The position numbers were made by a program, and so were the translations under genes. This document shows positions 18,609 through 64,000 of a DNA stretch of 64,000 nt, piece after piece. A model generated the notes under the pieces. The model made no database searches, had not been told where the DNA came from, and saw only the letters and a program-made list of their open reading frames with translations. This DNA is from Alphaproteobacteria bacterium (GTDB lineage Bacteria > Pseudomonadota > Alphaproteobacteria > SHVP01). Numbering within the stretch: position 1 is the first letter of the stretch; each line of letters opens with the position of its first letter. The stretch covers positions 4,060 to 68,059 of the forward strand of contig CANJEJ010000004.1 in NCBI GenBank assembly GCA_947473325.1, written 5' to 3'.

Positions 18609-18634
18609 CCACCCAGGGTGGACCCCGTGGGGCG

Positions 18635-19762: not shown

Positions 19763-19895
19763 GGGGACACCTCGATCTGGCAGGAATTGGCCAAGTATCG
19801 GCCAGCTTCTGAACTCAGGCAATGTTGTCGCTTAGGGTATATGGTCCCCGGTGCCCGGGAGTGCGGGCAGCTGAACACCGCGGGTATGTTGCACC

Positions 19896-20348
19896 ATGAG
19901 CCATCGCCTTGCCCTGATTGTGTTCGTCGTGCTTGTTGTCGGTGGCGGCCTCGTCATCGGCTATCTGACAGCGCCGGGCGACTGGTACGCCGCCCTCGAG
20001 AAGCCCTCGTTCAATCCGCCGAGCTGGGTGTTCGCGCCGGCCTGGACCCTGCTCTATGTCGCCATCGCCATCGCGGGCTGGAGAGCCTGGAAGAGCGACA
20101 GCCCCCGATGGCCCATGAGACTTTGGTGGACTCAGCTCGCTCTGAACTTCCTCTGGTCACCCGTGTTTTTCGCCGCCCATCGGATCGGGCTCGCGCTGCT
20201 CGTCATCAGCTTGCTGCTCGCCACCATCCTTGCGTTCATCGCCGTGTCCTGGCGGCAGGATCGCGTTGCGGCCTGGCTGTTTGCGCCCTATGCCGCGTGG
20301 GTATCCTTCGCCTCGCTGCTGAACGCATCAATCCTAGCGCTGAACTGA
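19896..20348 (+). CDS. tspO: TspO/MBR family tryptophan-rich sensory protein
   Basis: 150 aa with 5 TM helices and a W-rich sequence (WYAALEKPSFNPPSWVFAPAWTLLY...). Confidence 0.85.
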   Translation: MSHRLALIVFVVLVVGGGLVIGYLTAPGDWYAALEKPSFNPPSWVFAPAWTLLYVAIAIAGWRAWKSDSPRWPMRLWWTQLALNFLWSPVFFAAHRIGLALLVISLLLATILAFIAVSWRQDRVAAWLFAPYAAWVSFASLLNASILALN

Positions 20349-25777: not shown

Positions 25778-26114
25778 TGACGAGGGAATCAAGAGGGGAA
25801 CTTGAGGTGGGCGAGCATGGGCCGGACACTCATCCGGCCTTGTTGCGGCCGGATGGCGGGGTGATCGTGACCATAGGGATTGGTTCGACCAAACGATTTC
25901 ACGGCCGTTGAGGTAGCGTCTGCCGGCTCGTTCTGTCAGCACGGATGCGCTGGCGGAGGGGCCGAAACCGACATGAAACACTCTCTGCTCGTCAAATCTG
26001 GCCCCAGATGCACCCTCCGGAAACCGAAGATTCTCTGAGATCAACAGCCTGATCAGATCGCCTGAGAGAATAGCCCCCTATATTACCTCCCAAACGCAAG
26101 CGTAGGGGAACGCC

Positions 26115-46815: not shown

Positions 46816-47527
46816 TGTTCGTGTCCGCTTCGGCGGCGTCACCGCCGTCGACGGCGCCAGCCTGCAGGTCGCGGCCGGGGAATTCCTTGGCCTGATCGGA
46901 CCCAATGGGTCGGGCAAGACGACGCTGTTCAACAGCATCACCGGCGACCAGAAGGTCTCGGAAGGCCGCATCCACTTCAACGGTCAGGACGTGACCGGAT
47001 GGGCCAAGTACAAGCGGGCGCGCGCTGGCCTCGCACGCACCTACCAGAACGTCCAGGTCTTCCCGGAAATGCTGGTGACGGAGAACCTGATCTTCGCGGC
47101 AGAGGCGCGCGGCCAGTCGCCGTCGCCCCAACGCGTCCGCGAGCTGGTCGATTTCCTGTCGCTGACGCATCTCGCCCATGAGCGGGCGGGCAACCTGTCC
47201 TATGGCCAGAAGAAACTACTCAGCATCGGCCTTGCGGTCATAAGCGACCCGCAGATCCTGTTGCTCGATGAGCCGATGGCGGCGGTCAATCCCGTCATGG
47301 TGGACCTGATCGCGGAGCGGTTGGACGCCCTCAACAAACTGGGCGTCACCATCGTGCTGGTTGAGCACAACCTTCCCATCGTGCTGAAGCATTGCAGCCG
47401 CGTGGCCGTGCTGAATTTCGGCCGCATCATCTACAACGGCCCGGCGACGGGTGTGCGAGCGGACGACGGTGTGGCCGAAGCCTATCTGGGTCGAGCCTAC
47501 AGTCTGCCCGCCAAGGTGCCGTCATGA
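46796..47527 (+). CDS. Liv-type ABC ATPase (LivG-like)
   Basis: GTG start overlapping the LivM-like gene by 20 nt. Walker A is GPNGSGKTT; the signature is LSYGQKKLL. Confidence 0.85.
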   Translation: MLLHADNVRVRFGGVTAVDGASLQVAAGEFLGLIGPNGSGKTTLFNSITGDQKVSEGRIHFNGQDVTGWAKYKRARAGLARTYQNVQVFPEMLVTENLIFAAEARGQSPSPQRVRELVDFLSLTHLAHERAGNLSYGQKKLLSIGLAVISDPQILLLDEPMAAVNPVMVDLIAERLDALNKLGVTIVLVEHNLPIVLKHCSRVAVLNFGRIIYNGPATGVRADDGVAEAYLGRAYSLPAKVPS

Positions 47528-48276
47528 CGGCCGTGGGCCTGCCTGCGCTCAAGGCCACGGGCATCCGCGCCAGCTATGGCGTCGGCGAGATCATTCGCGG
47601 CATCGATTTCGAGGTCGCCGCCGGCGAGGTGGTCGTGATCATCGGTCCGAACGGCGCCGGCAAGTCGACCTTCCTGCGCGCGCTCTACGGTCTCATCCAG
47701 ACGACCGGCCTGGTGATGCTGGGCGGCCAGCGGATCGATGACGTGGCGGCAGACCGGCGGCTCGACCTCGGCCTTGCCTTCGTGCCGCAGGGCCGCTGCA
47801 ATTTCGCCGGACTGACGGTGCTGCAGAACCTTGAGGCCGCCTTGCTGCGCCTGCCGCGCGCCAAACGGGCCGCCGCGCTGGAAAGCACGCTTGAGCTGTT
47901 CCCGCCGCTGCGCCGGCTGTTGCGCCGCCGCGCGGGAAACGCCAGCGGCGGCGAGCAGCAGCTTGTCGAGATGGCGATGGCGCTGGTGAGCCAGCCCAAG
48001 GTCGTGTTGCTGGACGAACCGACGCTCGGCCTGTCGCCCATCGCCAGCGAATTCGTCTTCGACACCATCAAGGCGCTGCGCAAGACCGGGACCGGCGTCG
48101 TTATCGTCGAACAGAACGCCCGCCAGGCGCTGGAGATCGGCGACCGCGCCTATGTCTTCGAACAGGGCGTCAGCCGCATCGTCGACCGTTGCGACCGGCT
48201 GCTGGGCGACCGGCGCATCCGCGAAGTCTTCCTTGGCGGCAGCGTCGACGACCTTCCCCTCACGACCGAGTCATAA
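47524..48276 (+). CDS. Liv-type ABC ATPase (LivF-like)
   Basis: ATGA overlap. Walker A is GPNGAGKST; the signature is ASGGEQQ. Confidence 0.85.
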   Translation: MTAVGLPALKATGIRASYGVGEIIRGIDFEVAAGEVVVIIGPNGAGKSTFLRALYGLIQTTGLVMLGGQRIDDVAADRRLDLGLAFVPQGRCNFAGLTVLQNLEAALLRLPRAKRAAALESTLELFPPLRRLLRRRAGNASGGEQQLVEMAMALVSQPKVVLLDEPTLGLSPIASEFVFDTIKALRKTGTGVVIVEQNARQALEIGDRAYVFEQGVSRIVDRCDRLLGDRRIREVFLGGSVDDLPLTTES

Positions 48277-49389: not shown

Positions 49390-52300
49390 GTGCTGACCCT
49401 TTTTAGGCCCAAAGCATCCGGTCCGCCCCAAGGTTACAAATACTGGGCGTTTATCAGCTACAGCCATCGCGATTCGTCGTGGGGCGATTGGCTACACCGC
49501 AAGCTGGAGACTTTCGTCGTACCGGCCCAGATCATTGGGAAGGACATCAGCGCTGGTGTGCCGCGGCGTCTTTATCCAGTGTTTCGCGACCGCGAAGAAC
49601 TACCAACGGCAGCGGCCCTCAGCTCCAACATCGAGACGGCGCTGCGTGAGTCGAAATATCTCATCGTCATCGGTTCACCGAATGCGGCACGTTCGCTCTG
49701 GGTCAACAATGAGATCGAGACCTTCAAACGACTTGGGGGTTCGGACCGAATCCTTTGTCTTGTCGTCGACGGAGAGCCGAATGCCTCGGCTGACCGTGCC
49801 GGCGAAGAGTGTTTTCCGCTCGCTCTGCGCTACCGCTATGACGCCGCGGGCCAGCGCACCGACGTGCGCAGCGAACCGCTGGCGGCGGATGCCCGTCCGG
49901 GCAAGGATGGCAAACGCAACGCGCTGTTGAAGATCATTGCCGGTGTACTCGGCATCGACTATGCGAAGCTCAAGGATCGTGAAGGTCGTCGCCGTGCAAG
50001 ACAGCTGGCCGCAGTCGGCTCCCTTGTCGGCGCGGCCATTCTACTGTTCGCCGGGCAGCAATTTCTTGCCTACCGCAATCTTGCCGTCGAGCACGCCGCG
50101 ACCGAGCGGGCGTTGCTGGAATCCGAACTCCGCCTCGCTGAAAGCCAGGTGGCGCGGGGTGGGATGCTGGAAGAACGCAATGACTACACCGGGGCGAAGA
50201 ATGCCTATGCCCAGGCCTATGCCATACAGGCGCGTCATGCGGTGTCAGACCTGGCGGCGCGGCTCGGCTACCTTTCGGCGCAGGAACATCTGCCGGACCC
50301 GCTGCTGCGCTTCAGGGCTGACACGCCAGTTTCCGCGCTTGCCGTTGATGGTACAGGTTGCTGCCTGGTCACCGGACATGACGACGGCAGTATTGCGGTC
50401 TGGAAGACAGACGCCGGCCAGCCGCGCAGAACCCCTGTATCGACCGCCCCGATTGCGGGATTGGGGCTCATCGCAGGTTCGTCTCAGGCGGTTGTCGTCG
50501 ATCGTCTCGGCCGCGTTGTAGTCGTCGATATCGACGCCGGTAGTAGTCGCGTGGCGAGCGATGGCGCACTCGGCACAGTGAGTGCGGTTGTCGTCATGCC
50601 GAACGGTCAGGTGCTTTTGGCCGTGACATTGCCGCCCGCCCCTTCGGCCGCCGACCCGAGCAAGCAGGAACCCCGCTCTCGGGTTATTCACTACGACGCT
50701 CTGACCCAGAACATAGTACGGGACTTCCTGTTTCCCGGACCGGTCCGCGCGCTGGCTCTAAGCCCTGACGGCACATCGATCTTTGTTGCCGACGAGATCG
50801 CAGTAGAAATCGTCTTTGACCCTGGCCCCGCTATTCGACGCCGTTTTGTCGGCAACAAGGCGAGCAAAGACTTTTCCAGCCATGGCTTCGTCTATCAGTT
50901 CCGCATCGACAGCATGGCGGTCTCGGCGGACGGCGGCACACTCGCGCTGGGCTATAGCGATGGCATCCTGGAGTTTTGGGATCTCAATACAGGCAAACAG
51001 ACCTACGGCACGCGGGTGCTCGTTGGCAGCATCGGTACCCTTCACGATGGCAACGAGGGAAAAGCCTTTCTCTTCGGCGACAATGACGGTCGAGTGAGAG
51101 CGGTGGAACAAAAGAAGCGGCGCAACCTGCACCGTCACATTGCGCCAGTCGTTGCGCTGGCGCTGACGCCCGACGGCACCACGATCGTCAGCACGGATGG
51201 CCATGATATTGCGCTGTACAGTGGCGGTGACAGCGCCACATGGCTGCACCGGATCGGGCACGACGCTGGCATGATGCCGACCGCGGATTTCTCGCCCGAC
51301 TCGCGTCTGATGGTTACCCACGAATTGCTTGATGAGACGATTCACGTTTGGAGTGTCGCCAGCCAAGTCCGGCTGGTTTCTATTGCTTTTGACGATACGG
51401 TGACGGCGGCGTACTTCGTCAGCGCTAACGAACTGTTAGTGGCATTGAGCAGCGGCAGGGTGTTTTTGTACGATCTCGTCAAGCGCCAGGAGACTAGCCG
51501 CCTGCGAGAAGCAGGTGGCTCAGAGATCGACGCCTTCACCCTCTCTAAGAATCGGCAGCGTTGGGCAGTCATGTCGGGCGCACAGGTCACCGTCGCTGAT
51601 GTGCACGGTAAGAATCAGACCCATCTGCCCGTCGCCGTCAGCAAGCAAGGGGCTGTCCTGACATTGTCGCACGACGGCTCACGCATCGCCGTCGCCGCTG
51701 CTGGCCAAGTGACGGTTTGGACGGCTGCCGATCGTCGTCGCTTGCAGCAAATCGATCTCCCTCCGGGCCAAGCCATCGGTGCGATGGTACTAAGTGACGA
51801 CGACACCATGCTGGTGACGGCACATGAGGACGCTCGCCTCAGAGTCTGGGACATTCCCAGTGGTCGCATGGTGCGCACGATCCGCGGTCATGAAGGCGGT
51901 CTTGTGACCGCACTTGCGTTGATGCCGGACAATCGGACCGTCATTTCTGGCGGGTTCAACGGCGATCTCCGTTTCTGGGAAATCGGCGAAGGCAATGAAC
52001 TGCACAAGGTAGACGTCGGTCCGCCGATTCGGAAACTGACGGTTTCGCCGACGGGTGTCCTTGCCTTAGGCGTCTTCGGTGACTCTAACGTCTATGGCGA
52101 GATCGATCTCGTCCTGCTCGACAGTACGCCCGGTCGAACCTTAATCGAAGCATCCGGTTCGTTCAGCCGCGGACCGCAGGCTATTGCAACGCGTAAGCAA
52201 GCCTTCGTGAGCATGGCCGATTGGTACCGGACGCGCGGCCGTTGTCCTGAGGCGATCAGACTTTACGATCTTGCCTGGCAAGTGGACCGGCGATTCCCGG

Positions 52301-52449
52301 GCGAGCCAGATGGCATGATCGATTGCCTGACCAAGACTGACAATGAAGCAAGGGCATTGTCCGTGCTTGAGACGATTGCTGCGAACGGCGCGGAGCGGGA
52401 CAACGACATCGCCGCTCGGCTTTGGCTTCGATATCTTGAGGCAAGGTGA
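49390..52449 (+). CDS. TIR-domain / transmembrane / TPR-like / WD40-repeat protein (1019 aa), candidate anti-phage effector
   Basis: GTG start with an AGAGGG SD. YWAFISYSHRDSS...VFRDREELP...YLIVIGSPNAARSLWVNNEIETF is a TIR_2-type pattern. A TM helix (LAAVGSLVGAAILLFAG) is at about residue 205. WD motifs (IAVWKTD, LEFWDLNTG, RVWDIPSG, LRFWEIG) span residues about 330-900. Confidence 0.75.
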   Translation: MLTLFRPKASGPPQGYKYWAFISYSHRDSSWGDWLHRKLETFVVPAQIIGKDISAGVPRRLYPVFRDREELPTAAALSSNIETALRESKYLIVIGSPNAARSLWVNNEIETFKRLGGSDRILCLVVDGEPNASADRAGEECFPLALRYRYDAAGQRTDVRSEPLAADARPGKDGKRNALLKIIAGVLGIDYAKLKDREGRRRARQLAAVGSLVGAAILLFAGQQFLAYRNLAVEHAATERALLESELRLAESQVARGGMLEERNDYTGAKNAYAQAYAIQARHAVSDLAARLGYLSAQEHLPDPLLRFRADTPVSALAVDGTGCCLVTGHDDGSIAVWKTDAGQPRRTPVSTAPIAGLGLIAGSSQAVVVDRLGRVVVVDIDAGSSRVASDGALGTVSAVVVMPNGQVLLAVTLPPAPSAADPSKQEPRSRVIHYDALTQNIVRDFLFPGPVRALALSPDGTSIFVADEIAVEIVFDPGPAIRRRFVGNKASKDFSSHGFVYQFRIDSMAVSADGGTLALGYSDGILEFWDLNTGKQTYGTRVLVGSIGTLHDGNEGKAFLFGDNDGRVRAVEQKKRRNLHRHIAPVVALALTPDGTTIVSTDGHDIALYSGGDSATWLHRIGHDAGMMPTADFSPDSRLMVTHELLDETIHVWSVASQVRLVSIAFDDTVTAAYFVSANELLVALSSGRVFLYDLVKRQETSRLREAGGSEIDAFTLSKNRQRWAVMSGAQVTVADVHGKNQTHLPVAVSKQGAVLTLSHDGSRIAVAAAGQVTVWTAADRRRLQQIDLPPGQAIGAMVLSDDDTMLVTAHEDARLRVWDIPSGRMVRTIRGHEGGLVTALALMPDNRTVISGGFNGDLRFWEIGEGNELHKVDVGPPIRKLTVSPTGVLALGVFGDSNVYGEIDLVLLDSTPGRTLIEASGSFSRGPQAIATRKQAFVSMADWYRTRGRCPEAIRLYDLAWQVDRRFPGEPDGMIDCLTKTDNEARALSVLETIAANGAERDNDIAARLWLRYLEAR

Positions 52450-52910: not shown

Positions 52911-55154
52911 CTAGTTGTTCTCGTCGGTGTCGGTGGACGGCTTGGGAGAGACCGTTTTTGGGGCCGGCGGCGGATCTATCGGCAGCGCATCCAGGGGCAG
53001 GCAGGCCGCCCGCGATTTGGTGCCGGCAAAGGTGAGGGGGTGGCCGGACGGCGTGGCGCCGGAAACACGGCGGAGGGACTGACTCCAGACCCCGTTGGCC
53101 CAACGGCTCCCCCGATAGATCTGAGTCAAACCCTGATCGTTCTCGCTGTTGGACACCGCCAACGCCGCGGCGTCCCTGATCGAGCGACTCACCTTGCCGT
53201 CCCGTGTAACGACCAACAGGCCGTGACGCCTAAGATTTGCATGGGCCCAGCGATTGCCATTGAGAGCCGCCACGATGACTTCGCCAACAGTCAGGGTTTG
53301 TCTCCTCGTGACCTTCACCGTGCCTTGCTTTTCTTCATACTCGACAACGATGCGGCTACTGCAGAGATGGTTCAGGCATTGCTCGGGATCACCCTCCCCG
53401 TCGGCGCCTGTCACATCCTCGACCGCGAAGAGTCGCACCACGGTCTCGGCGTCGGATGCCGTCGCGACTTTGTCAGAGTAGAAGATCTCGGCCGCGCCGA
53501 GCAGTGGTGCCATTCGGTCGATTGAGCGGGGGCTGTGCCCCGCTTCGGCGAGAACCATCTCATAGAGGTCGATGTTTGCCTGGAGGCGGCCATCAGCAGC
53601 GGCATCAAGAACACGACGCATAAAACGCGGGCCGAGGTCTGAGAAGTCGCGAAGGCGCTCTCTATGAGCGCGGCCGATGGGCTCGCCACTCTCATCCGAT
53701 CCGGTGGGCAGCGGTAGAAGCTCGAGCTTGTAGAAGCGACTTTGATCTTGCGGTCGCAGGGTCACATGCAGAATGGACGTGATGCAGATGATGGCGTTGA
53801 CTGGCCACTGCGTGGCGACACCGCCGGCGCTTCCCCGCCCCACCGGCGCCTGGTCGGCGGTCGAAGCGAGACGAGAGAGGTCATAGACGTCGCGGGCCCG
53901 CCCCTGACGATCGGTTTCCAGCTCATCAATCAGCACCGCGCGGGCGCCAGAACCCAATTGCTGACGGATGCCGGCCTCCGTCGGTGCCGAGAGGCAAAGG
54001 GCGGTGCTGCCCAGCAGTTTCTTGAGTAGTCCATCAAGCGTGCTCTTGCCGCTGCCGCTGCGCCCTGTCACGAGCAAATGCGGCCGCCACGAAAGCAAGC
54101 CCGGGATCATTGCGCAGGCAATCCAACCCAGAAGGATCCGGGGTGCGGTGAGAGGCGCTGCCCAGACCCAACTCTCGACGAAATTCAGCAGGTCTTGCGC
54201 TTGCGCTAGCGTCGCAGCTTCGTTAGCCGGCCGCGTCACCGGGATGCTGCGCGGATAGACATAACCGCCGAGCAGGAAGCCGGGTTCGCGCCACGTCTTG
54301 TCCACCAACACCGCATCGCCACAATGAACAATCAGGGTGCGCCGTCCTGCAGTCTCCGGACCCCGCCACACGCCAACGTCCCGGATCTGCCGAGGCGGGT
54401 CAAAACTGCCTGCCGCCGCCGCTTCATGGATTAGGAAGTCCCGGGCCTTGTCGGGCACCCAACCGACTACAGAACCTTCCTTGTATTTCGGGAAAGTTTT
54501 GCGCAGCCACTCGACGTCACCATCGAAGAGACCTGAAATTTCGTGCGCCGTGAAGTCCCGCGCCTTCAACTTCCTCAGTTGCCCATCCTTCTGGATGAAA
54601 TGATAGGCGCCCTCGCTGTCCTTCCCGATCGGTGTGATCGGTATGCCATCATGCGGCAAACCATCACCTTCATTCCTGTGGCCTCTGTGCGCGTTGTCCT
54701 TCGACCTGTGCGCGCTGCCGCCGACATGTGACTCCCCACCGCCGTCACCACCGGATGTTTGCTCGCCGACATGCGAGGCCTGCTCGTCTTGATTTCCCAT
54801 GATTTCCCGATGGGGATCTGCACTGCGGTCCTCAGCGGCCACGATGGCGCGGCTCCCACCTGCGGAGGTGCGTGGTTCGTTTGCGTGCTCCGACGGGGCC
54901 GGCACGTGCAGCTCAGCTTTCTGGATGAGGTCCCTGATTCGCTGTTCCCCCACTCGGGATTCCGATGAGGCGTCCGCGCTTCGTCGTTTCGATGCCATGA
55001 CGGTACCCGGTCGCGAGTCGCGCCAAGCGGAATCCAAAGCGTACTCAGTCGCGCGCTGCGGCCATGATCCACAAGTCTGATGATTCCGGGAATTGTGATG
55101 TTGGTTCCTATTCATTCCCTGTTGTTCCGCAAGATCGATGGCTAATATGGCCAC
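52911..55154 (-). CDS. P-loop NTPase, putative mobile-element replication/primase-helicase-like protein
   Basis: 747 aa. Walker A is LVTGRSGSGKSTL; Walker B-like is VLIDELE. A Gly/His-rich low-complexity N-terminal region is present. The start is uncertain (GTG at 55154 or ATG at 54998). Confidence 0.55.
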   Translation of the reverse strand: MAILAIDLAEQQGMNRNQHHNSRNHQTCGSWPQRATEYALDSAWRDSRPGTVMASKRRSADASSESRVGEQRIRDLIQKAELHVPAPSEHANEPRTSAGGSRAIVAAEDRSADPHREIMGNQDEQASHVGEQTSGGDGGGESHVGGSAHRSKDNAHRGHRNEGDGLPHDGIPITPIGKDSEGAYHFIQKDGQLRKLKARDFTAHEISGLFDGDVEWLRKTFPKYKEGSVVGWVPDKARDFLIHEAAAAGSFDPPRQIRDVGVWRGPETAGRRTLIVHCGDAVLVDKTWREPGFLLGGYVYPRSIPVTRPANEAATLAQAQDLLNFVESWVWAAPLTAPRILLGWIACAMIPGLLSWRPHLLVTGRSGSGKSTLDGLLKKLLGSTALCLSAPTEAGIRQQLGSGARAVLIDELETDRQGRARDVYDLSRLASTADQAPVGRGSAGGVATQWPVNAIICITSILHVTLRPQDQSRFYKLELLPLPTGSDESGEPIGRAHRERLRDFSDLGPRFMRRVLDAAADGRLQANIDLYEMVLAEAGHSPRSIDRMAPLLGAAEIFYSDKVATASDAETVVRLFAVEDVTGADGEGDPEQCLNHLCSSRIVVEYEEKQGTVKVTRRQTLTVGEVIVAALNGNRWAHANLRRHGLLVVTRDGKVSRSIRDAAALAVSNSENDQGLTQIYRGSRWANGVWSQSLRRVSGATPSGHPLTFAGTKSRAACLPLDALPIDPPPAPKTVSPKPSTDTDENN

Positions 55155-55928: not shown

Positions 55929-56165
55929 ATGGCCAAAGTAGACGAGCCGCTTGAGCGGTTGGGTACGAAGGAAGTTGCCGCGTATTTGGGACTCGCGTCC
56001 TCCACGTTGAGAAAGTGGCGCATGACGGGCGATGGCCCGCCGTTCCACCGTCTGGGCAAGCGCCTGATCTTCTACAAGCTGGCCGATCTGGAAGCCTGGC
56101 TAGAGGAATGCAGCCGCCAGCGCCCTCCGGGCTATAACCTGCAGGGTGCGACGGGGCATGAGTAA
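55929..56165 (+). CDS. AlpA-family HTH transcriptional regulator / excisionase-like
   Basis: LGTKEVAAYLGLASSTLRKWRMTGDGPPFHRLGKRLIFYKLADLEAWL matches the AlpA/Xis MerR-type HTH pattern. A GAGGTG SD is present. The inverted repeat CCATCTCC...GGAGATGG overlaps the start. Confidence 0.6.
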   Translation: MAKVDEPLERLGTKEVAAYLGLASSTLRKWRMTGDGPPFHRLGKRLIFYKLADLEAWLEECSRQRPPGYNLQGATGHE

Positions 56166-56361
56166 CGGGCTCGCCCCCGATCTGCTCACGCCCACCGAGC
56201 GCATCGCCGAGTTGGGCGCCCTGCTGGCCGCCGGCCTCATCCGTCTCCACGCTTCCCAGTCAAGTCGAACATCTGCCGTGTCCCGAGACAGTTCGGTGGA
56301 CTGTGCCGCCGACCAGAGCGTCGATGCGACCGCCCTCAACGAGACGGAGGAAGACGCATGA
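56158..56361 (+). CDS. small hypothetical protein (67 aa)
   Basis: The start overlaps the AlpA-like stop. Its stop overlaps the next start (ATGA). Confidence 0.3.
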   Translation: MSNGLAPDLLTPTERIAELGALLAAGLIRLHASQSSRTSAVSRDSSVDCAADQSVDATALNETEEDA

Positions 56362-56807
56362 CAGACAGCGTGCTGGCCCGCCTGGCGGCCCTCAAGACCA
56401 CGCCCACGGCCGAGCTCAAGAAACAGTGGCAGGCTCTCTTCGAGACGCCCCCGCCCCGCTACAACCGCCGTTTCCTCGAGAACCGCCTCGCCTACCGGAT
56501 TCAGGAGCTGGCCTATGGCGGGCTCAAGCCTGAGACTCTCAAGACCCTGGCGACGCTCGCCGTACAGCTCGAGGCGAAGACGCCCGCAGGGCGTGCGAAG
56601 CCCGATTCCGACATGCCGGTCGAAGGCACCCAGCTCCTGCGTGAGTGGGGCGGCGTCATGCACCGGGTGACCGTGCTTCGCAACGGTTTTGAGTGGGAAG
56701 GCCGGTCCTACAAGTCCCTGTCGATTATCGCGCGGACCATCACGGGCACCCAGTGGAACGGCCCTGCCTTCTTCGGCCTACGCCGCAAACCCCGGAGCGC
56801 CGAATGA
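56358..56807 (+). CDS. DUF2924-like protein (typically found immediately upstream of large serine recombinases)
   Basis: 149 aa. Its position is ATGA-coupled to the recombinase. LKKQWQALFETPPPRYNRRFLENRLAYRIQE and WNGPAFFGL are recalled as characteristic of the family. Confidence 0.5.
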   Translation: MTDSVLARLAALKTTPTAELKKQWQALFETPPPRYNRRFLENRLAYRIQELAYGGLKPETLKTLATLAVQLEAKTPAGRAKPDSDMPVEGTQLLREWGGVMHRVTVLRNGFEWEGRSYKSLSIIARTITGTQWNGPAFFGLRRKPRSAE

Positions 56808-58180
56808 CCACGCCCGCCCGGCGGCTCCGTTGTGCCGTCTACACGCGCAAGAGTTCCGAAGAAGGATTGGATCAGGCCTTCAACTCGCTCGACGCCCAGC
56901 GCGAGGCCTGTGCCGCCTATATCGCCAGCCAGAAGGGCGAAGGCTGGTCCCTGGTGATGGACCCCTATGACGATGGCGGTGTCTCTGGCGCCACCCTGGA
57001 GCGCCCCGCGCTCAAGCGCCTGCTGGCCGATATCGAGGCTAGTCGCGTCGATATGGTGGTGGTCTACAAGATCGACCGCCTCTCCCGCTCCCTGATGGAC
57101 TTCGCCCGGCTGGTCGAGGTCTTCGACCGCCAGCAGGTAACCTTCGTGTCGGTGACGCAGGCCTTCAACACCACGACCAGCATGGGCCGGCTCACCCTCA
57201 ACGTGTTGCTCAGCTTCGCCCAGTTCGAGCGCGAGGTCATCGGCGAGCGCATCCGCGACAAGTTCGCCGCTTCACGCAAGCGCGGCATGTGGATGGGTGG
57301 CACGGTGCCCTTCGGCTACCGGGTGGAGGCCCGCAAGCTGGTCATCCGCGAGGATGAGGCCGCCATCGTGCACAAGGTCTATGACCGCTTCCTCAAGCTG
57401 GGCTCGGCCACCCTGCTGGCGCAGGAGCTGGCGAAGCAGGGGGTCTGCATGCGCCGCGGCGGACCCATCGACAAGGGCGCAATTTACAAGCTGCTGCACA
57501 ACCCGGTCTATGTCGGGGAGGCGGTTCACAAGGGCGTCAGTTACCCGGGCGAGCACGAGGCCATTGTCAGCCGGGCCCAGTGGGACAAGGTGCGGGCGGT
57601 CCTGGCCGAGAACCCCAACCTTCGGGCGGGGCGGGTCCGGGCCAAGACGCCCTTCCTGCTGAAGGGCCTGATCTTCGGCCCCACTGGCGAGGCGATGTCG
57701 CCGAGCCATACCAGGCGGGGCAGCAAACTGTACCGGTATTACGTCAGCCAAGCGGTGCTGCGGCGCGGCAAGGATGCCTGCCCGTTGGGGCGGGTGCCGG
57801 CGGCGCTGATCGAGGGTGCGGTCATCGGCCAGCTGCGGGCGCTGCTGAAGCAGCCGGAGGTCATCGTCAGCACCTGGCGGGCCACGCGGGGGCAGGTCGA
57901 GCACTTCAGCGAGCAGCAGGTGACCGAGGCCCTCACCAGACTGGACCCGTTATGGGAGCATCTCTTTCCGGCCGAGCAGGCGCGCATCGTGCAGCTGCTG
58001 GTCGAGCGGGTCGATGTGCAGGAGACGGCCATCGAGATCCGGCTGCGCACGGCCGGGCTGGCATCGGTGGTGGAAGAGCTCTCGCAGTTGCGGGGTACCA
58101 ACGACGTCGGGGCAGCGGCGAAGCCCCAGGCCGGCCGGCGCCGCCGGACAGAAAACGACCCACGGCGAGAGGCTGCGTGA
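56804..58180 (+). CDS. large serine recombinase (resolvase/invertase N-terminal domain plus recombinase and zinc-ribbon domains)
   Basis: VYTRKSSEEGLDQAFNSLDAQREAC contains the catalytic Ser. VVYKIDRLSRSLMDF and the recombinase domain (GGTVPFGYRV...) are present. 458 aa. Confidence 0.85.
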   Translation: MTTPARRLRCAVYTRKSSEEGLDQAFNSLDAQREACAAYIASQKGEGWSLVMDPYDDGGVSGATLERPALKRLLADIEASRVDMVVVYKIDRLSRSLMDFARLVEVFDRQQVTFVSVTQAFNTTTSMGRLTLNVLLSFAQFEREVIGERIRDKFAASRKRGMWMGGTVPFGYRVEARKLVIREDEAAIVHKVYDRFLKLGSATLLAQELAKQGVCMRRGGPIDKGAIYKLLHNPVYVGEAVHKGVSYPGEHEAIVSRAQWDKVRAVLAENPNLRAGRVRAKTPFLLKGLIFGPTGEAMSPSHTRRGSKLYRYYVSQAVLRRGKDACPLGRVPAALIEGAVIGQLRALLKQPEVIVSTWRATRGQVEHFSEQQVTEALTRLDPLWEHLFPAEQARIVQLLVERVDVQETAIEIRLRTAGLASVVEELSQLRGTNDVGAAAKPQAGRRRRTENDPRREAA

Positions 58181-58653
58181 TGAGCACGGCGGTCCGCCGA
58201 ACCTCCGACACCCTGGTCGTGCGTGTGCCGATGACGTTCCGGAAGCGCGGCGGGCGGCGGATGGTCATCCTGCCCGACGGTGCAGAAGCCTTCGAGCCGA
58301 CCGCCGCGCGCCCACAGCCGGTGAGTGCAAGTCTCAAGGCCATGGTGAAGGCGTTCCGCTGGCGGCACCTGCTGGAGACCGGGGTGTATGCGGAGATTGA
58401 TGACATTGCTGAGGCCGAGGGTGTGAACCCCTCCTATGCCAGCCGGATCTTCCGACTCACGCTGCTGGCACCAGACATCGTCGAGGCGATTGTTGAGAAC
58501 CGGCAGCCGGAGGCGCTCACGCTGGCGAAACTGCTCGCGCCGTCACCGGTGAAATGGAGCCTCCAACTCCAGCACTTCAACCTGCTGAGGGACGCGCGAA
58601 CGGTTGACGTGCCTGAAATGGCGTTAGGGAACGCTTCTGAATCAAGCACTTGA
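58180..58653 (+). CDS. hypothetical DNA-binding protein downstream of the recombinase
   Basis: A TGATG overlap links it to the recombinase stop. IDDIAEAEGVNPSYASRIFRLTLLAPDIVEAIVENRQP is an HTH-like segment. Confidence 0.4.
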   Translation: MSTAVRRTSDTLVVRVPMTFRKRGGRRMVILPDGAEAFEPTAARPQPVSASLKAMVKAFRWRHLLETGVYAEIDDIAEAEGVNPSYASRIFRLTLLAPDIVEAIVENRQPEALTLAKLLAPSPVKWSLQLQHFNLLRDARTVDVPEMALGNASESST

Positions 58654-58759
58654 GAAGCTAATGCTCCAGCCTCCTCCATTGCATCGCTATATCGGTTGAC
58701 ACCTACGAAGTTTCCGCCTCTACCCTTGGTAGCATCAACGAGACGAGCTACCGGGCAAC

Positions 58760-61621
58760 GTGACGACCGATTACCACGCGAAATATTTTGCCTACGAGCT
58801 GACCAGAAGGCACGCGCCCGGAAGTGGCGACAAACTTGCGGGTGCAGTCGCCGGCGCGCAGGTGGACCTGAACCCGCACCAGGTCGATGCTGCGCTTTTC
58901 GCCTTTTCCTCCCCGCTCTCCAAGGGCGCACTTCTGGCCGACGAGGTAGGCCTAGGAAAGACGATCGAAGCTGGTCTCGTCATTTCACAGCGGTGGGCGG
59001 AACGAAAACACTGCGTCCTGATCATCACGCCCTCGAACCTCCGAAAGCAGTGGCACCAAGAACTTAGCGAGAAGTTCTTCCTTCCATGCGTGATTCTGGA
59101 GTCGCGTTCCTACAACGAGGCAATCAAGTCGGGACGCTTTCGTCCGTTCGACGTAAAGGACACCGTTGTCATTTGCTCCTATCAGTTTGCGCGGAACAAG
59201 GCGGCCGATGTGCAGGCCATGCCGTGGGACCTCGTCGTTATTGATGAGGCGCATCGGCTCCGCAATGTTTACAAGCCGGGAAACGTCATCGCGAATACGC
59301 TGAAGCAGGCGCTCGCGCAGAAGCAGAAGCTGCTCCTGACGGCGACGCCGCTGCAGAACTCCCTGCTGGAGCTATTTGGCCTCGTAAGCTTTATCGACGA
59401 ACACACATTCGGCGATCTCAAGAGCTTCCGCGAGCAATTCGCCAACCTCGCGCAGGATCGCGTGTTCCATGTTCTCAAAGAGCGGCTGAAACCGCTCTGC
59501 CATCGCACCTTGCGTCGGCAGGTCACCGCCTACGTCCCCTACACGCGGCGCCTGGCGCTCGTTGAGGAGTTCACGCCAACCGATGGCGAGGATCGGCTGT
59601 ACGAGCTCGTGTCGGAGTATCTGCGGCGGGACAACCTGCAAGCCCTCCCGGCCAGCCAGCGCTCCCTGATGACGCTCGTTCTTCGGAAGCTGCTCGCGTC
59701 CTCAACCTTCGCCATCGCCGGGGCGCTGTCGTCCATCTCGCGGCGGATGCAGGCCAAGCTCAAGAAGCACGAGGTCGATGCGCCGCTAGAGGATGATCTC
59801 GGCCAAGACTATGAGAGCCTCGATGCCACGGCCGAGGAGTGGACCGAGGACGAGGAGCTTGAACCCCTGACGGACGCAGATCGCAAGGCGATCGAGTCCG
59901 AAATCGCTGATCTGAACGAGTTCGCTCGGCTCGCCACGTCGATCGACCACAATGCCAAGGGGAAGGCGCTGCTGAAGGCGTTAGGTGTGGCTTTCGCGAA
60001 GGCCGAGGAACTTGGCGCCGAACCAAAAGCAATCATCTTCACCGAGTCACGAAAGACACAGGCCTATCTGCTACGGGTCCTCGCCGACAGCCCCTACGCC
60101 GACGGCGTTGTACTGTTCAACGGCACGAACACTGACGACCGCTCGAAACAAATTTACGCCCGATGGATCGAGCGTCATCAAGGCTCGGATCGCGTCAGCG
60201 GGTCGAAGACGGCCGACATGCGATCGGCCCTGGTGGACTATTTCCGCGAGGAAGGCCGCATCATGATCGCGACCGAGGCTGGCGCCGAGGGGATTAATCT
60301 TCAGTTCTGCTCTCTGGTCGTGAACTACGACCTCCCTTGGAACCCGCAGCGCATCGAGCAGCGAATTGGCCGGTGTCATCGCTACGGCCAGAAGCACGAC
60401 GTGGTGGTCGTCAACTTCCTCAATCGCAAGAACGAAGCCGATCAGCGCGTTTATCAGCTTCTGTCTGAGAAGTTCAAACTCTTCGAAGGTGTGTTCGGAG
60501 CGAGCGATGAAGTGCTGGGCGCCATCGAGTCCGGCGTGGACTTCGAAAAGCGGATCAGCGCCATCTATCAGCAATGCCGACAAACGGAAGAGATCAAGAC
60601 AGCCTTCGATAAGCTCCAGTTGGAGCTCAGCCTCGAGATCAACGAGGCGATGAGCGAGACCCGGCAAAAGCTGCTGGAGAACTTCGACGACGAAGTCCGC
60701 GAGAAACTCAAGATTCGGGACGAGGATGCCAAGGTCTACCTCGACCGCTTCGAGCAGCTGCTCATGCGCCTCACCCGGCATGAGCTGAACGACAGCGCCG
60801 AGTTCCTAAACGTGTCGTCCTTCCGCTTGAAGTCGAAACCGCCTTGGGCCGACGGCCGGGCCGTTCCGCTCGGCCTCTACGAGTTGCCGCGCCGTTCTGG
60901 CGAAGCCCACCTTTACCGGCTGAGCCACCCCCTGGGCGAAGCCATCGTCGAACGGGCCAAGGCGCGAGAGCTTGCCGTTGCGGAGCTGATCTTCGAATAC
61001 AGCAAACATACTGGCAAGGTGAGCGCGCTTGAGCCTCTCAATGGCAAGACCGGGTGGCTCACCGCAGCCATGGTCACCATCGAAGCCCTCGACCAGGCCG
61101 AAGATCATCTCCTCTTGTCCGGCTTGTCGGATGCCGGCGAGCCGTTGAGCGACGACGCCGCGTTACGCCTACTGACGCTGGCGGGACACGTTGGGGCAGC
61201 GGCAGCGCCGCCAGTTGATATGATCGATCGGCTAAAAGGAGATCTCCACCTCCGGCAGCAGGTCATCCAGCGCTCGATCTCGGAGCGCAATGCACGCTTC
61301 TTCGAAGCCGAGGCGGACAAGCTCGACGGCTGGGCGGATGATCTCAAAGTCGGCCTCGAACGTGAAATCAAGGAAATCGACAGGCTGATCAAGGAAGCAC
61401 GCCGCGCCGCCACGGCGGCGCTCACACTTGAGGAGAAGCTCGCCGGTCAGAAGGCAGTCAAGGCATTGGAGGCCGACCGCAGCACCAAGCGCCGAACACT
61501 TTTCGAGGCGCAAGATCGCATCGACGCTGACCGCGCCAAACTAATCGCCGACATTGAAGGCAAATTGGACCAGAAGATTTCCGAGGAGCACCTCTTCACT
61601 ATTCGATGGAGGGTCGTCTGA
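58760..61621 (+). CDS. SNF2-family helicase (953 aa)
   Basis: LADEVGLGKTIEAG (motif I), DLVVIDEAHRLRN (DEAH), LLLTATPLQNSLLELFGL (SNF2 motif III) and the helicase-C region (MIATEAGAEGINLQ...QRIGRCHRYGQ) are present. A long coiled-coil C-terminus follows. Confidence 0.85.
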   Translation: MTTDYHAKYFAYELTRRHAPGSGDKLAGAVAGAQVDLNPHQVDAALFAFSSPLSKGALLADEVGLGKTIEAGLVISQRWAERKHCVLIITPSNLRKQWHQELSEKFFLPCVILESRSYNEAIKSGRFRPFDVKDTVVICSYQFARNKAADVQAMPWDLVVIDEAHRLRNVYKPGNVIANTLKQALAQKQKLLLTATPLQNSLLELFGLVSFIDEHTFGDLKSFREQFANLAQDRVFHVLKERLKPLCHRTLRRQVTAYVPYTRRLALVEEFTPTDGEDRLYELVSEYLRRDNLQALPASQRSLMTLVLRKLLASSTFAIAGALSSISRRMQAKLKKHEVDAPLEDDLGQDYESLDATAEEWTEDEELEPLTDADRKAIESEIADLNEFARLATSIDHNAKGKALLKALGVAFAKAEELGAEPKAIIFTESRKTQAYLLRVLADSPYADGVVLFNGTNTDDRSKQIYARWIERHQGSDRVSGSKTADMRSALVDYFREEGRIMIATEAGAEGINLQFCSLVVNYDLPWNPQRIEQRIGRCHRYGQKHDVVVVNFLNRKNEADQRVYQLLSEKFKLFEGVFGASDEVLGAIESGVDFEKRISAIYQQCRQTEEIKTAFDKLQLELSLEINEAMSETRQKLLENFDDEVREKLKIRDEDAKVYLDRFEQLLMRLTRHELNDSAEFLNVSSFRLKSKPPWADGRAVPLGLYELPRRSGEAHLYRLSHPLGEAIVERAKARELAVAELIFEYSKHTGKVSALEPLNGKTGWLTAAMVTIEALDQAEDHLLLSGLSDAGEPLSDDAALRLLTLAGHVGAAAAPPVDMIDRLKGDLHLRQQVIQRSISERNARFFEAEADKLDGWADDLKVGLEREIKEIDRLIKEARRAATAALTLEEKLAGQKAVKALEADRSTKRRTLFEAQDRIDADRAKLIADIEGKLDQKISEEHLFTIRWRVV

Positions 61622-63438
61622 TGGTTGACCGTCCCGTAGAGATATTGGCGCTCCCCCCGAAGCTCCATGCATTGTTCGATGCCACCGTTCCGAAGAAGAC
61701 GAACGGGGACGCGAACCAAAACGAACGCGACTTTTTGAGCCGCGCTTTATCCTCTTACGCAATTCACAAGTTGACAGATGCGGACATTGCACAGTCCGCT
61801 GCATCGCTCGTCGACGGCGGAGGGGACGGCGGTATAGATGGGGTTTTTTTCTCTGCAACCACGGATACCCTCTGGCTTGTTCAAAGCAAATACATTCACT
61901 CCGGAGTCGGCGAGCCCGATCTCGGCGAGGTGACCAAGTTCAAAGCCGGTGTCGAATTTCTGTTGGAAGGCAGGTTCGAGGCCTTCGCGGATAGCAAAGC
62001 CTGGCAAGCGATCATGCCTCAGATCGAGGCTGCCCTGAAGAATTCGTCGCACGTCCGTGCCGTGCTTTGCTATTCGGGCCTGGGCCTGGTTTCCGAGGAT
62101 CGGAAGCGTCTATTCGAATCACTTCGGGCCAAAGTGTCGAAGGATGCAAACGACGATTACTTCGGATTTCAATCCATCAATCTCACCACGCTCAACGATT
62201 GGATTACGGGCGGCGGAGACCCCCGCGGCGTGGAATCTGTCGAGCTGGAGCTTCTCCGGCCTGGGCTTGTTACAGAGCCCCATGAGACCATCTATGGTTT
62301 GGTTTCGCTCGATGCGCTCGACGCTTTGCACAGGAAACATGGAAAGAAGCTTGTCGCCGCAAATCTACGCGGCTTCAAGGGGCGCACGGATGTAAACGAC
62401 GAGATTCAAAAGACGGTCAGCGATGAAGCTGATTTGTTTTTCTACCTGAACAACGGCCTGACAGCCTACTGCGATAGGCTTGAAATAAATAACATTGATC
62501 GCGCCAACGCCGAAAGGAAGCGCCTGACCGCCAAGGGCTTCGCGATCATCAATGGCGCGCAGACGCTGGGCTCCATCGTGAAGAGTTTTGACGGTAAGCC
62601 GCTCGAAAGGCAGCCCAAGGGCTACGCTTTCATCAAGATTATTTCGTTGGAGAAGTGCGAAGATGACCGCGCGTTTGCGGATCGTATCTCCCGCACGGCC
62701 AACTTCCAGAATCATGTGGAGCTCAGAGACTTCGCCGCCGCTTATGAATTCCATCAAGAAGTTTCGAGGGCGCTTTCAGTGAATGGGGTGGGCTACCACT
62801 ACAAAACTGATGAGGACACGCCCCCGAATGACGCTTCCAACTTCGATATGGAAGAAGCGCTGACAGCGTGCGCCTGTCTTCAGAATACAGCCGACTGCGA
62901 CTTTATCACCCGCGTTGCGGCGAACCGCGACTCGCTTCGCTCTTTGGAAATGGTCTTTCCGGCCGGCGAGGTTCTGCGAAGCCGCCACGAGCGAGTCTTT
63001 CCTCACAGCCTGTCCGCCCGTTCGGTATGGCGCGCGGTTCAGGTGCAGCGGATCGCACTGGACGCCATGAAGGGCGCGGCCGGCGCGGCAACCGGAGCAA
63101 CCAAGTCGTTCTATACGAATGCGCGTTGGGTCGTACTCGCAGGGCTGTTCAACCGCCTCAAGCCGCAGAATGGAGAGGCTCTTGCGGTGACGGCTAAAGA
63201 GCAAGCCGACGTTTCGGCCGCCACCGCAGAATATGCAGAGAAGCTGCTGGCTCTGAGTGTGGCTAAGGGGTTTGCGAGCTACGAACAGCAGCCAGGGGGA
63301 ATTCAGGTTCTGAAGTCCACTCGCGACTTTCAGTCCGTGTTTAAGACACAAGGCGATTGCCAAACCCTGTTCGGCGCGCTCAAGGCGGAAATTTGGAAAG
63401 CAGAGTATCCCGCGCAACCACAGATGGGGGCGCAGTGA
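61621..63438 (+). CDS. hypothetical protein with putative PD-(D/E)xK nuclease-like N-terminal motif (possibly AIPR/Abi-like)
   Basis: The start overlaps the SNF2 stop (GGAGGG SD 7 nt upstream). GGGDGGIDGVFF...TLWLVQSKY fits a D...(E/Q)xK pattern. About 605 aa. The family assignment is from memory and is not verified. Confidence 0.45.
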   Translation: MVDRPVEILALPPKLHALFDATVPKKTNGDANQNERDFLSRALSSYAIHKLTDADIAQSAASLVDGGGDGGIDGVFFSATTDTLWLVQSKYIHSGVGEPDLGEVTKFKAGVEFLLEGRFEAFADSKAWQAIMPQIEAALKNSSHVRAVLCYSGLGLVSEDRKRLFESLRAKVSKDANDDYFGFQSINLTTLNDWITGGGDPRGVESVELELLRPGLVTEPHETIYGLVSLDALDALHRKHGKKLVAANLRGFKGRTDVNDEIQKTVSDEADLFFYLNNGLTAYCDRLEINNIDRANAERKRLTAKGFAIINGAQTLGSIVKSFDGKPLERQPKGYAFIKIISLEKCEDDRAFADRISRTANFQNHVELRDFAAAYEFHQEVSRALSVNGVGYHYKTDEDTPPNDASNFDMEEALTACACLQNTADCDFITRVAANRDSLRSLEMVFPAGEVLRSRHERVFPHSLSARSVWRAVQVQRIALDAMKGAAGAATGATKSFYTNARWVVLAGLFNRLKPQNGEALAVTAKEQADVSAATAEYAEKLLALSVAKGFASYEQQPGGIQVLKSTRDFQSVFKTQGDCQTLFGALKAEIWKAEYPAQPQMGAQ

Positions 63439-63445
63439 GGCAGAA

Positions 63446-64000
63446 ATGACAAAGAAGAAAAAACTCGAACTGACGTGGGTGGGCAAGGAAAACCTGCCGC
63501 GCCTGGAGCCGCGCATCCTGCTCGAAGAGTCCGAGAGGTCGTATCATGCCGCGCATCGGGTCGGCGACGAAGACATCTTCGACAATCGGCTGATCTTTGG
63601 CGACAACCTGCTCGCACTGAAGGCGCTGGAGCAGGAATTTTCTGGCCAGATCAAATGTGTCTACATTGATCCACCTTTCAATACCGGAGCAATGTTTGAG
63701 CATTACGACGATGGATTGGAGCATTCTCTATGGCTGCAGCAAATGAGCGATCGGCTTTCCATTCTGCAAAGATTGCTACACAGAAGCGGCGTCATTTGGA
63801 TTCATATTGATGATAAGGAAGTAGCATACCTGCGAGTTGTCTGTGACGAGATTTTCGGGCGTCGTAATTTTTTGAATATGATCGTCGTTAAGACATCCGA
63901 TCCTTCTGGACATAAAACGGTTAACCCATCTCCCTATTCTCAAACAGAATACATTTTGATGTATGCGAAGGAGCGCGCCGAATTTCAATACGAACAAAGA
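63446..64000 (+). CDS. Type III restriction-modification Mod-like N6-adenine DNA methyltransferase (partial; continues beyond the window)
   Basis: TGAGG lies 5 nt before the ATG. LELTWVGKE, CVYIDPPFNTG (DPPY-type motif IV) and VCDEIFG closely parallel EcoP15I Mod (LNWLGK, IYIDPPYNTG, VCDEIFG). Confidence 0.75.
   Translation, partial: MTKKKKLELTWVGKENLPRLEPRILLEESERSYHAAHRVGDEDIFDNRLIFGDNLLALKALEQEFSGQIKCVYIDPPFNTGAMFEHYDDGLEHSLWLQQMSDRLSILQRLLHRSGVIWIHIDDKEVAYLRVVCDEIFGRRNFLNMIVVKTSDPSGHKTVNPSPYSQTEYILMYAKERAEFQYEQR

Follow-up and report, generated by a model that had tools for sequence, protein, structure and literature searches.

The 64,000-nucleotide (nt) stretch of DNA analysed here (hereafter the window) comes from an alphaproteobacterial assembly (GenBank GCA_947473325.1, contig CANJEJ010000004.1, positions 4,060 to 68,059 of the forward strand), and its last part encodes an SNF2-family ATPase, an AIPR/AbiU-type protein and the start of a DNA methyltransferase, Mod. 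Judging from sequence, we consider it very probable that these genes belong to a complete four-gene Type III restriction-modification (R-M) operon of the Eco86II/BspHIV-type subgroup with a dedicated SNF2 ATPase, that the AIPR gene is independent cargo, and that the operon lies on an island at a tRNA-Ser gene. The fourth gene, res, lies just past the window end. It was read from the source contig stretch L001 (scaffold_2068 of MEHR18-2, ENA ERZ28612979, 93.9 kb), which encodes the exact 605-amino-acid (aa) AIPR protein and is identical to the window across all 12380 shared bases; coordinates above 64000 are taken from L001 and are called window-equivalent. The initial annotation, made from the window alone, had described a system that looked non-canonical. 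On L001, a canonical res gene (900 aa) overlaps the end of mod, and the apparent lack of Res is an artefact of the window edge.

The order on L001 is SNF2 - AIPR - Mod - Res, then tRNA-Ser. The features of the operon are:

58760 to 61621, forward strand: SNF2-family ATPase, 953 aa (Pfam, PADLOC, NCBIfam and motifs)
61621 to 63438, forward strand: AIPR/AbiU-type protein, 605 aa (Pfam AIPR; an upstream start at 61606 gives 610 aa)
63446 to 64000, forward strand: N-terminus of Mod, 185 aa in the window (N6_N4_Mtase); the full gene, 589 aa, ends at window-equivalent 65215
Window-equivalent 65212 to 67914, forward strand: Res, 900 aa (from L001; beyond the window end)
61575 to 64000 and on to about 64527, no strand: low-GC mosaic segment, covering AIPR and the N-terminal half of Mod including the target-recognition domain (blastn against the closest relative, L087, and GC content)

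The assignment to Type III is carried by Mod and Res. Within the window, the N-terminus of Mod matches Pfam N6_N4_Mtase (E=4e-21) and PADLOC MTase_III (E=2e-80). The full-length protein (589 aa) matches PF01555 over residues 69-397 (E=8e-44) and the PADLOC MTase_III model along its full length (667 bits), with motif IV (DPPF) at residues 75-78 and motif I (FAGSG) at 369-373, while residues 177-332, the target-recognition domain, are unalignable between close relatives. These features make Mod a beta-class amino-methyltransferase whose central target-recognition domain is variable. Its nearest solved structures are the Type III Mods of H. pylori (6K0W) and EcoP15I (4ZCF_A), in agreement with the initial annotation, which had recognized an EcoP15I-like Type III Mod. 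Motif IV in the form DPPY/F is common to m6A and m4C Type III Mods and fits either mark. Res matches Pfam ResIII (E=3e-20) and PADLOC REase_III (682 bits) and carries the motifs GVGKT, DESH, TATP and QSIGR; its C-terminal P817-D818...E831-P-K833 is invariant in 40 of 40 homologues, and EcoP15I Res is the nearest solved structure. Mod thus has the class and motif order of a Type III methyltransferase, and Res, directly after mod, is an SF2 ATPase with a C-terminal PD-(D/E)xK domain. The catalytic motifs are intact in Mod, Res and SNF2.

As in EcoP15I and EcoPI (PDB 4ZCF), mod and res overlap, a beta-class Mod holds a central target-recognition domain, and Res joins an SF2 motor to a C-terminal PD-(D/E)xK nuclease domain. 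Unlike those systems, the window operon adds SNF2 and AIPR genes upstream, and the similarity to EcoP15I is low (E=2e-21 for Mod; E=9e-9 for Res, over the motor only).

The same kind of operon was described by Murray et al. 2021 (PLoS One, PMC8259958) as a 'third group' of Type III R-M systems with an extra conserved gene, encoding an SF2 helicase-like ATPase, 5' of mod; its members include BspHIV and Eco86II of E. coli NCTC86. According to the same authors, over 500 genomes encode the ATPase alongside Mod and Res, it has no nuclease motif and no known function, and the protective mark is m4C in the two characterised members. Given those genomes, the combination of SNF2 with Mod and Res is not undescribed, as had been thought possible from the window. 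The window locus belongs to this SNF2-associated subgroup by having an Eco86II-homologous, nuclease-free ATPase 5' of mod. It also shares with Eco86II and BspHIV the order SNF2-mod-res, a Res with Walker A/B motifs and a C-terminal PD-(D/E)xK domain, and a Mod with DPPF and FxGxG motifs. It differs in that the Eco86II Mod and Res are larger (1040 and 1126 aa, versus 589 and 900 aa) and only distantly related, and in that SNF2 and mod of NCTC86 are separated by 20 nt, where the window holds AIPR. In the literature searched, no later functional study of the ATPase with Type III R-M was found besides Murray et al. 2021, and the MANTIS/Gao_RL, BREX-related and Dnd literature gave no relevant description of SNF2 with Type III.

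The SNF2 protein itself, correctly called from the window as a 953-aa SNF2 helicase with a DEAH motif, matches Pfam SNF2-rel_dom (E=2e-35) and Helicase_C, and has its motifs at residues 64-68 (GLGKT), 162-165 (DEAH), 194-197 (TATP) and 534-541 (QRIGRCHR). The ATPase core spans approximately residues 30-690. All domains found are of the SNF2, helicase or ATPase type; no nuclease domain was found, and Pfam gives no match to the C-terminal 284 aa. Its identity to the SNF2 protein of the Eco86II locus in NCTC86 is 45% over the full length (803 bits; 953 versus 963 aa). Homologues number in the thousands, with at least 75% identity in Bradyrhizobium, Methylobacterium, Rhodospirillum, Mesorhizobium and gammaproteobacteria, and the family is present in more than 10 phyla and on plasmids of Salmonella, Klebsiella and E. 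coli.

Among profile models, the best PADLOC match of SNF2 is DrmD (E=9.5e-205, aligned residues 33-933) and the best NCBIfam match is DISARM_DrmD_b (681.9 bits versus a cut-off of 950, aligned residues 31-669); NCBIfam DISARM_DrmD gives 251 bits versus a cut-off of 610. The NCBIfam cut-offs are curated, whereas PADLOC models carry no curated cut-off. An assignment to the RapA/HepA housekeeping helicases was rejected at 187 bits versus the NCBIfam cut-off of 576 and with the RapA N-terminal (Tudor-like) domains absent: the SNF2 core begins at about residue 30, and no alignment to RapA begins before RapA residue 146. Among solved structures, RapA is the closest by both sequence and fold, the similarity being modest. 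The predicted full-length structure of SNF2 is poor (pLDDT 59, pTM 0.31) and confident for residues 740-953 only; residues 690-953 are predicted to form a beta-sheet and a long helical hairpin. A Foldseek search with the model returned only RapA and chromatin remodellers, matches that point to no function for the C-terminal domain. Within residues 740-953 (window 60980-61618), the predicted hairpin is antiparallel and comprises approximately 115 residues (819-886 and 890-935) with no Pfam match. On the model, this domain could be a surface for contact with a partner.

The association of SNF2 with Mod and Res was followed across 80 genome loci, which are the best matches to the window SNF2 and do not sample the wider family at random. 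They span Proteobacteria, Verrucomicrobia, Acidobacteria, Nitrospirota, Planctomycetes, Bacteroidetes, Bifidobacteriaceae and Treponema; plasmid and E. coli examples were added. Linkage was counted in those 54 loci where 9 kb or more of sequence is available downstream of SNF2. SNF2 is followed by mod in 53 of them, and by both mod and res in 51. The 54 loci divide into 47 with a short Mod and Res of the window type, 4 with long, Eco86II-like enzymes, 2 with mod only, whose long insert would put res past the available sequence, and 1 exception, E. coli STEC639, with a more distant methyltransferase. Where nothing lies between SNF2 and mod, mod starts 6-30 nt after SNF2. Furthermore, SNF2 and Res diverge together (Mantel correlation of pairwise distances, r=0.886; 0 of 2000 permutations reach it). 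Given this linkage, co-divergence and spacing, we conclude that SNF2 is a dedicated partner of Mod-Res and not a chance neighbour. The initial annotation had likewise placed SNF2 with the methyltransferase, and the order in the 53 loci and the co-divergence with Res bear this out. Of the two observations which it had named as jointly speaking against its own reading, a res gene directly downstream was found, and an SNF2 gene forming a separate, unrelated unit was not. The SNF2 family also occurs with a lineage of long Mod (approximately 1010-1040 aa) and long Res (approximately 1050-1126 aa), in loci L031, L032, L034, L036, L058 and L085 (E. coli NCTC86). Since it is found with both short and long Mod and Res, the motor has been retained across at least two divergent Type III lineages.

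Between SNF2 and mod, the operon has a variable slot. Its length was measured in 62 loci, those that include the end of SNF2 as well as the start of Mod, and lies between 6 and 6746 nt (median 2046). An AIPR gene fills it in 22 loci, other cargo of at least 1 kb in 28, and 9-10 have no insert. AIPR is the commonest occupant (35% of loci) and is absent from 40 of the 62. The other cargo includes Septu PtuA with PtuB, AbiLi with AbiLii, HEC-01 ATPases, LmuB-like ATPases of approximately 770 aa, DUF2130, Schlafen/AlbA_2, SIR2 with HerA, DSR2, HEC-06 (GmrSD-like), PD-Lambda-5 and PDC-M30. In plasmid loci, the same slot holds a VapC toxin-antitoxin pair, an Abi gene and insertion sequences. The SNF2-to-mod junction is hence a hot spot for diverse known defence modules, and AIPR is exchangeable cargo outside the core of the system. 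It is not the fixed subunit that had been assumed from the window, being present in 22 of 62 loci only.

The window was compared with its closest relative. Locus L087 has an SNF2-AIPR-Mod-Res operon whose SNF2 is 94% identical to that of the window; it has no recombinase and sits directly 3' of dnaA-dnaN-recF-gyrB. (A Bradyrhizobium locus, L089, has an 89% identical SNF2 and a similar operon in a different context.) Protein identity to L087 is 93% for Res, 87% for Mod residues 333-589, 63% for Mod residues 1-176 and 30% for AIPR, and Mod residues 177-332 are unalignable. By blastn, the two loci match over SNF2 (58766-61574, 91%), over the first 290 nt of mod (63446-63735, 83%) and over the C-terminal part of Mod plus Res (window-equivalent 64528-67862, 88.7%), with no match over the AIPR gene or over 63736-64527. 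The GC content is 0.564 in AIPR and 0.48-0.49 in the N-terminal half of Mod; in SNF2, the C-terminal part of Mod and Res it is approximately 0.60. Because identity to L087 breaks in this way and GC content varies in parallel, AIPR and the specificity-determining half of Mod form a cassette that was swapped between conserved arms. In L087, a gene for an Mrr (Type IV) restriction enzyme (18018-18932) overlaps the res stop and is followed by a gene for a TnsA-like endonuclease (19557-20321).

The 605-aa protein of the window is a clear member of the AIPR family (Pfam AIPR, E=1.4e-29, 104.2 bits versus a cut-off of 25; PADLOC AbiU, 88.6 bits, E=1.3e-25). The DGGIDG and QSK motifs at residues 69-74 and 88-90 had been taken in the initial annotation for a PD-(D/E)xK nuclease core. 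The motifs are present, their family is AIPR, and the nuclease guess is a reasonable one. Residues D69, G71, I72, D73, Q88 and K90 do not vary among 67 homologues, residues 61-106 give a weak, below-threshold match to Pfam Mrr_cat (E=0.014), and structure comparison suggests a FokI/Mrr-like restriction-endonuclease fold for the N-terminal domain; a sequence search against solved structures gave no match. It is therefore reasonable to regard the N-terminal domain as a putative PD-(D/E)xK-like nuclease with the site D69/D73...Q88-x-K90. A 2026 review gives a FokI match for lactococcal AbiU as well. The AIPR domain and the putative FokI/Mrr-like N-terminal fold are shared with AbiU of Lactococcus, as is residence of AIPR (PF10592) in R-M operons. 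In contrast to AbiU, whose known mechanism is delayed phage transcription, the window gene occupies a defined slot in a Type III operon. The frequent presence of AIPR genes in R-M and Type III operons had been noted earlier (Iyer et al. 2008; Makarova et al. 2012). An identification of the window protein as MzaE of the MZA system was rejected, as it scores 50 bits versus the NCBIfam cut-off of 1050, and the locus does not belong to MZA.

A working model of the operon can be drawn from Type III enzymology. In EcoP15I and EcoPI, Mod and Res form a Mod2Res1 complex that hemimethylates DNA at a short asymmetric site; unmodified sites in inverse orientation set off ATP-driven sliding and a cut beside the site. 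By analogy, Mod2Res1 of the window locus would hemimethylate an asymmetric host site, and Mod-Res on unmodified, inversely oriented sites would be switched by ATP to sliding and would cleave beside the site. RapA strips and recycles RNA polymerase. Our best guess for SNF2, which follows the analogy with RapA and is speculative, is a double-stranded DNA translocase that would clear protein roadblocks for DNA-bound Mod-Res or would recycle it; we infer that it may improve restriction in vivo without being a stoichiometric subunit. AIPR, also speculatively, would most likely be a self-contained Abi-type nuclease, an independent second layer of defence riding on the operon. This independence is likely because the slot is elsewhere empty or filled with other defence modules.

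Several points weigh against this interpretation. The ATPase is dispensable for methylation and was not detected in an Eco86II fraction that had been partially purified and was partly active (PMC8259958); SNF2 may not touch the enzyme at all. The analogy with RapA rests on modest similarity and on a poor full-length SNF2 model (pLDDT 59). By their sequences, the Mod and Res of the window are of a short lineage, different from that of Eco86II. AIPR, being the commonest cargo (35%) and having been noted earlier with Type III systems, may have a functional tie to the core. Lastly, the 80 loci were chosen by their match to SNF2 and are not random for the wider family.

A tie of this sort is made explicit in the proposal, which we hold to be unlikely, that SNF2-slot-Mod-Res is a modular platform in which SNF2 couples restriction to the effector in the slot, with the cargo and the Mod specificity half swapped as one cassette. 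SNF2 might, for example, detect Mod-Res complexes that have stalled or been inhibited on foreign DNA and license the cargo to act. A guard arrangement, in which SNF2 or Mod-Res would hold the slot cargo (AIPR) inactive and release it when a phage inhibits restriction, as EcoprrI does with PrrC, appears quite improbable. The prominence of AIPR in the slot (22 of 62 loci) speaks for it, as do its 1-nt overlap with SNF2 and its position 7 nt before mod, its exchange together with the target-recognition half of Mod, and the long-noted presence of AIPR/AbiU in R-M and Type III operons; an immunity-suicide coupling of the same kind was proposed by Makarova et al. 2012. However, the same slot also holds self-sufficient systems (Septu, SIR2-HerA, DSR2, AbiL, PD-Lambda-5) or nothing, other, quite different systems (MZA, for example) have AIPR proteins as well, and the co-divergence of AIPR with SNF2 is weak (distance correlation r=0.33, versus 0.94 for Res in the same loci). 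The window locus resembles the PrrC-containing EcoprrI Type I locus, and BREX-embedded genes, in having an Abi-type effector inside the operon with alternative cargo between genomes; it differs from PrrC/EcoprrI in that the host system is Type III with SNF2 and in that the cargo includes autonomous multi-gene systems.

Still less credible, and very unlikely in our view, is that SNF2 is an independent defence protein or a RapA-like housekeeping helicase that merely neighbours a Type III system. RapA is indeed the closest solved structure, the variable slot does separate SNF2 from mod, and the ATPase of Eco86II was neither in the purified fraction nor needed for methylation (PMC8259958). Nevertheless, a same-strand mod (and res, where the sequence reaches) accompanies SNF2 in 53 of 54 loci, with the family spread over more than 10 phyla and plasmids; the correlation with Res (r=0.886) and the 6-30 nt spacing without cargo do not suit a mere neighbour, and neither the RapA score (187 versus 576 bits) nor the missing RapA N-terminal domains suit a housekeeping helicase.

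The initial annotation had favoured SNF2 + AIPR + Mod as a non-canonical, possibly new methylation-based system. On this reading, DISARM-like or new, AIPR, DrmABC or PLD would be the effector in place of Res; although the best PADLOC and NCBIfam matches of SNF2 are to DrmD, the SNF2 gene precedes an amino-methyltransferase as in class 1 DISARM, and AIPR has a putative nuclease fold, this is the least likely explanation of all and is largely refuted by the contig past position 64000, given a Res with an intact nuclease motif right after mod, no DUF1998, DrmA or PLD, a DrmD_b score of 682 bits below the cut-off of 950, a Mod of PF01555 and the lack of AIPR in 40 of 62 loci. DrmD is the closest named family to SNF2, and SNF2 falls below the curated cut-offs; class 1 DISARM has DrmMI of PF13659 where the window has Mod of PF01555, and the window operon has Res. 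DrmA, DrmB, DrmC, DUF1998 and PLD were all missing from the operon and from the approximately 5.5 kb after it, and the DrmA/B/C or PLD partners anticipated downstream are not among the genes following mod on the contig. Judged by these sequences, the window SNF2 is a DrmD relative in a different system, not DISARM.

With the operon so identified as a Type III system with a dedicated SNF2 and exchangeable cargo, its setting can be described. The flanking features are:

55929 to 56165, forward strand: HTH_17/AlpA-like DNA-binding gene (Pfam HTH_17, E=1.6e-12), which opens the co-directional run; part of the island module, outside the R-M core
56158 to 56361, forward strand: 67-aa gene with the DUF2924/recombinase module (gene call; homologues adjoin DUF2924 in L004 and L057)
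56358 to 56807, forward strand: DUF2924 protein, partner of the serine recombinase (Pfam DUF2924, E=4.8e-50)
56804 to 58180, forward strand: large serine recombinase, 458 aa from the ATG called on the contig (Pfam Resolvase, E=9e-40; Recombinase; Zn_ribbon_recom)
58180 to 58653, forward strand: 157-aa gene travelling with the recombinase module (homologues in L004, L005 and L057)
58654 to 58759, no strand: untranslated spacer of 106 nt between the recombinase module and SNF2 (sequence)
Window-equivalent 68100 to 68189 (L001 16480-16569), reverse strand: tRNA-Ser(GGA), beyond the window end

The initial annotation had read eight co-directional genes from 55929 and three open reading frames (ORFs) for SNF2, AIPR and Mod; the run is seen on the source contig, and the three ORFs are where ORF and gene calls also put them. 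It had further described these three genes as overlapping stop to start, which is right for SNF2 and AIPR (a 1-nt overlap, TGATG) and wrong for AIPR and mod, which have 7 nt between them; res starts within the end of mod. A translational fusion to the recombinase module, also claimed, is contradicted by separate ORFs and by the 106 untranslated nt (58654-58759) that precede SNF2. A scan for promoters and terminators from 55 to 64 kb found no sigma-70-like site and terminator-like sites at chance level, and is uninformative on co-transcription. The 67-aa gene (56158-56361) had no match in a family search and the 157-aa gene had none in Pfam, PADLOC or NCBIfam; the product of the latter may be a recombination directionality factor or a DNA-binding partner.

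The DUF2924/serine recombinase module lies beside the operon in 4 of the 80 loci (L004, L005, L044 and L057). This low count reflects carriage by an island, and not the functional linkage with the recombinase that had been suggested. On L001, tRNA-Ser(GGA) is located 186 nt beyond res, its 3' end pointing to the operon; past it come genes for a 277-aa protein and a hydrolase, then the housekeeping genes for an FtsJ-like protein, LepA and PheT. The layout in L005 is as in the window, with tRNA-Ser(GGA) (20841-20930) after res. In L057, tRNA-Ser(TGA) (9455-9544) lies ahead of SNF2, and the recombinase module, inverted, comes after res. A tRNA-Ser gene thus abuts the operon in all 3 checkable loci with the recombinase module (L001, L005 and L057), the module being on the far side each time; this suggests a tRNA-Ser-associated island, something unusual for a serine recombinase. 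In other loci, tRNA-Gly, tRNA-Thr or tRNA-Leu lies just 5' of SNF2. The GC content falls from approximately 0.66 at 44-48 kb to 0.54-0.61 at 48-64 kb, being lowest in AIPR and the N-terminal half of Mod, and on sequence composition this drop is consistent with a foreign island of approximately 20 kb ending at tRNA-Ser. The simplest reading of this arrangement is that, in this lineage, the operon is cargo of a small DUF2924/large-serine-recombinase integrative island at tRNA-Ser. A search of the window for an att repeat of the tRNA-Ser 3' end, allowing up to 3 mismatches, found none; a 15-nt identity to tRNA-Ser at 25947-25961, lying among metabolic genes, was judged to be due to chance and rejected as att.

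A small gene of the excisionase type, encoding a helix-turn-helix (HTH) protein, lies 50-110 nt 5' of SNF2, or overlaps it, in L002, L005, L062, L063, L068, L070, L081, L083 (6232-6432) and L086 (9814-10014). It is absent from the window, where the 106-nt spacer is found instead. In the relatives, this HTH gene may be a regulator of the operon. The MADS system was also considered, since NCBI gives this HTH the name 'MAD1' in E. coli and Salmonella relatives, and rejected: it has no SNF2 gene (mad2-mad8, with MAD6-8 mandatory), and the HTH is of the generic excisionase type.

Further genes lie upstream in the window. Just 5' of the island and in the same low-GC stretch, 49390-52449 (forward strand) encodes a 1019-aa protein that combines WD40 beta-propeller repeats with a TIR domain (ThsB_TIR/TIR_2) at its N-terminus, for which PADLOC gives only a weak HEAT-ARM match; it could be a TIR-based defence protein or an NLR-like sensor. 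Between this gene and the recombinase module, 52911-55154 (reverse strand) encodes a P-loop protein of 680-747 aa with a weak match to AAA_29, beyond which no Pfam or PADLOC family was found. At the edge of the low-GC region, 47392-48276 (forward strand) encodes a 294-aa ATPase with partial PADLOC matches to mad3 (E=8e-28) and mad8 (E=4e-15); it is probably a generic ABC/AAA ATPase.

Taken together, the arrangement has been known since 2021, and the locus adds a well-resolved example of it and nothing categorically new. The cargo hot spot, and the swapping of a cassette between near-identical SNF2 and Res arms, were not found stated in the literature searched. The slot and the cassette give handles on the contribution of SNF2 and on the joint diversification of R-M specificity and accessory defences.

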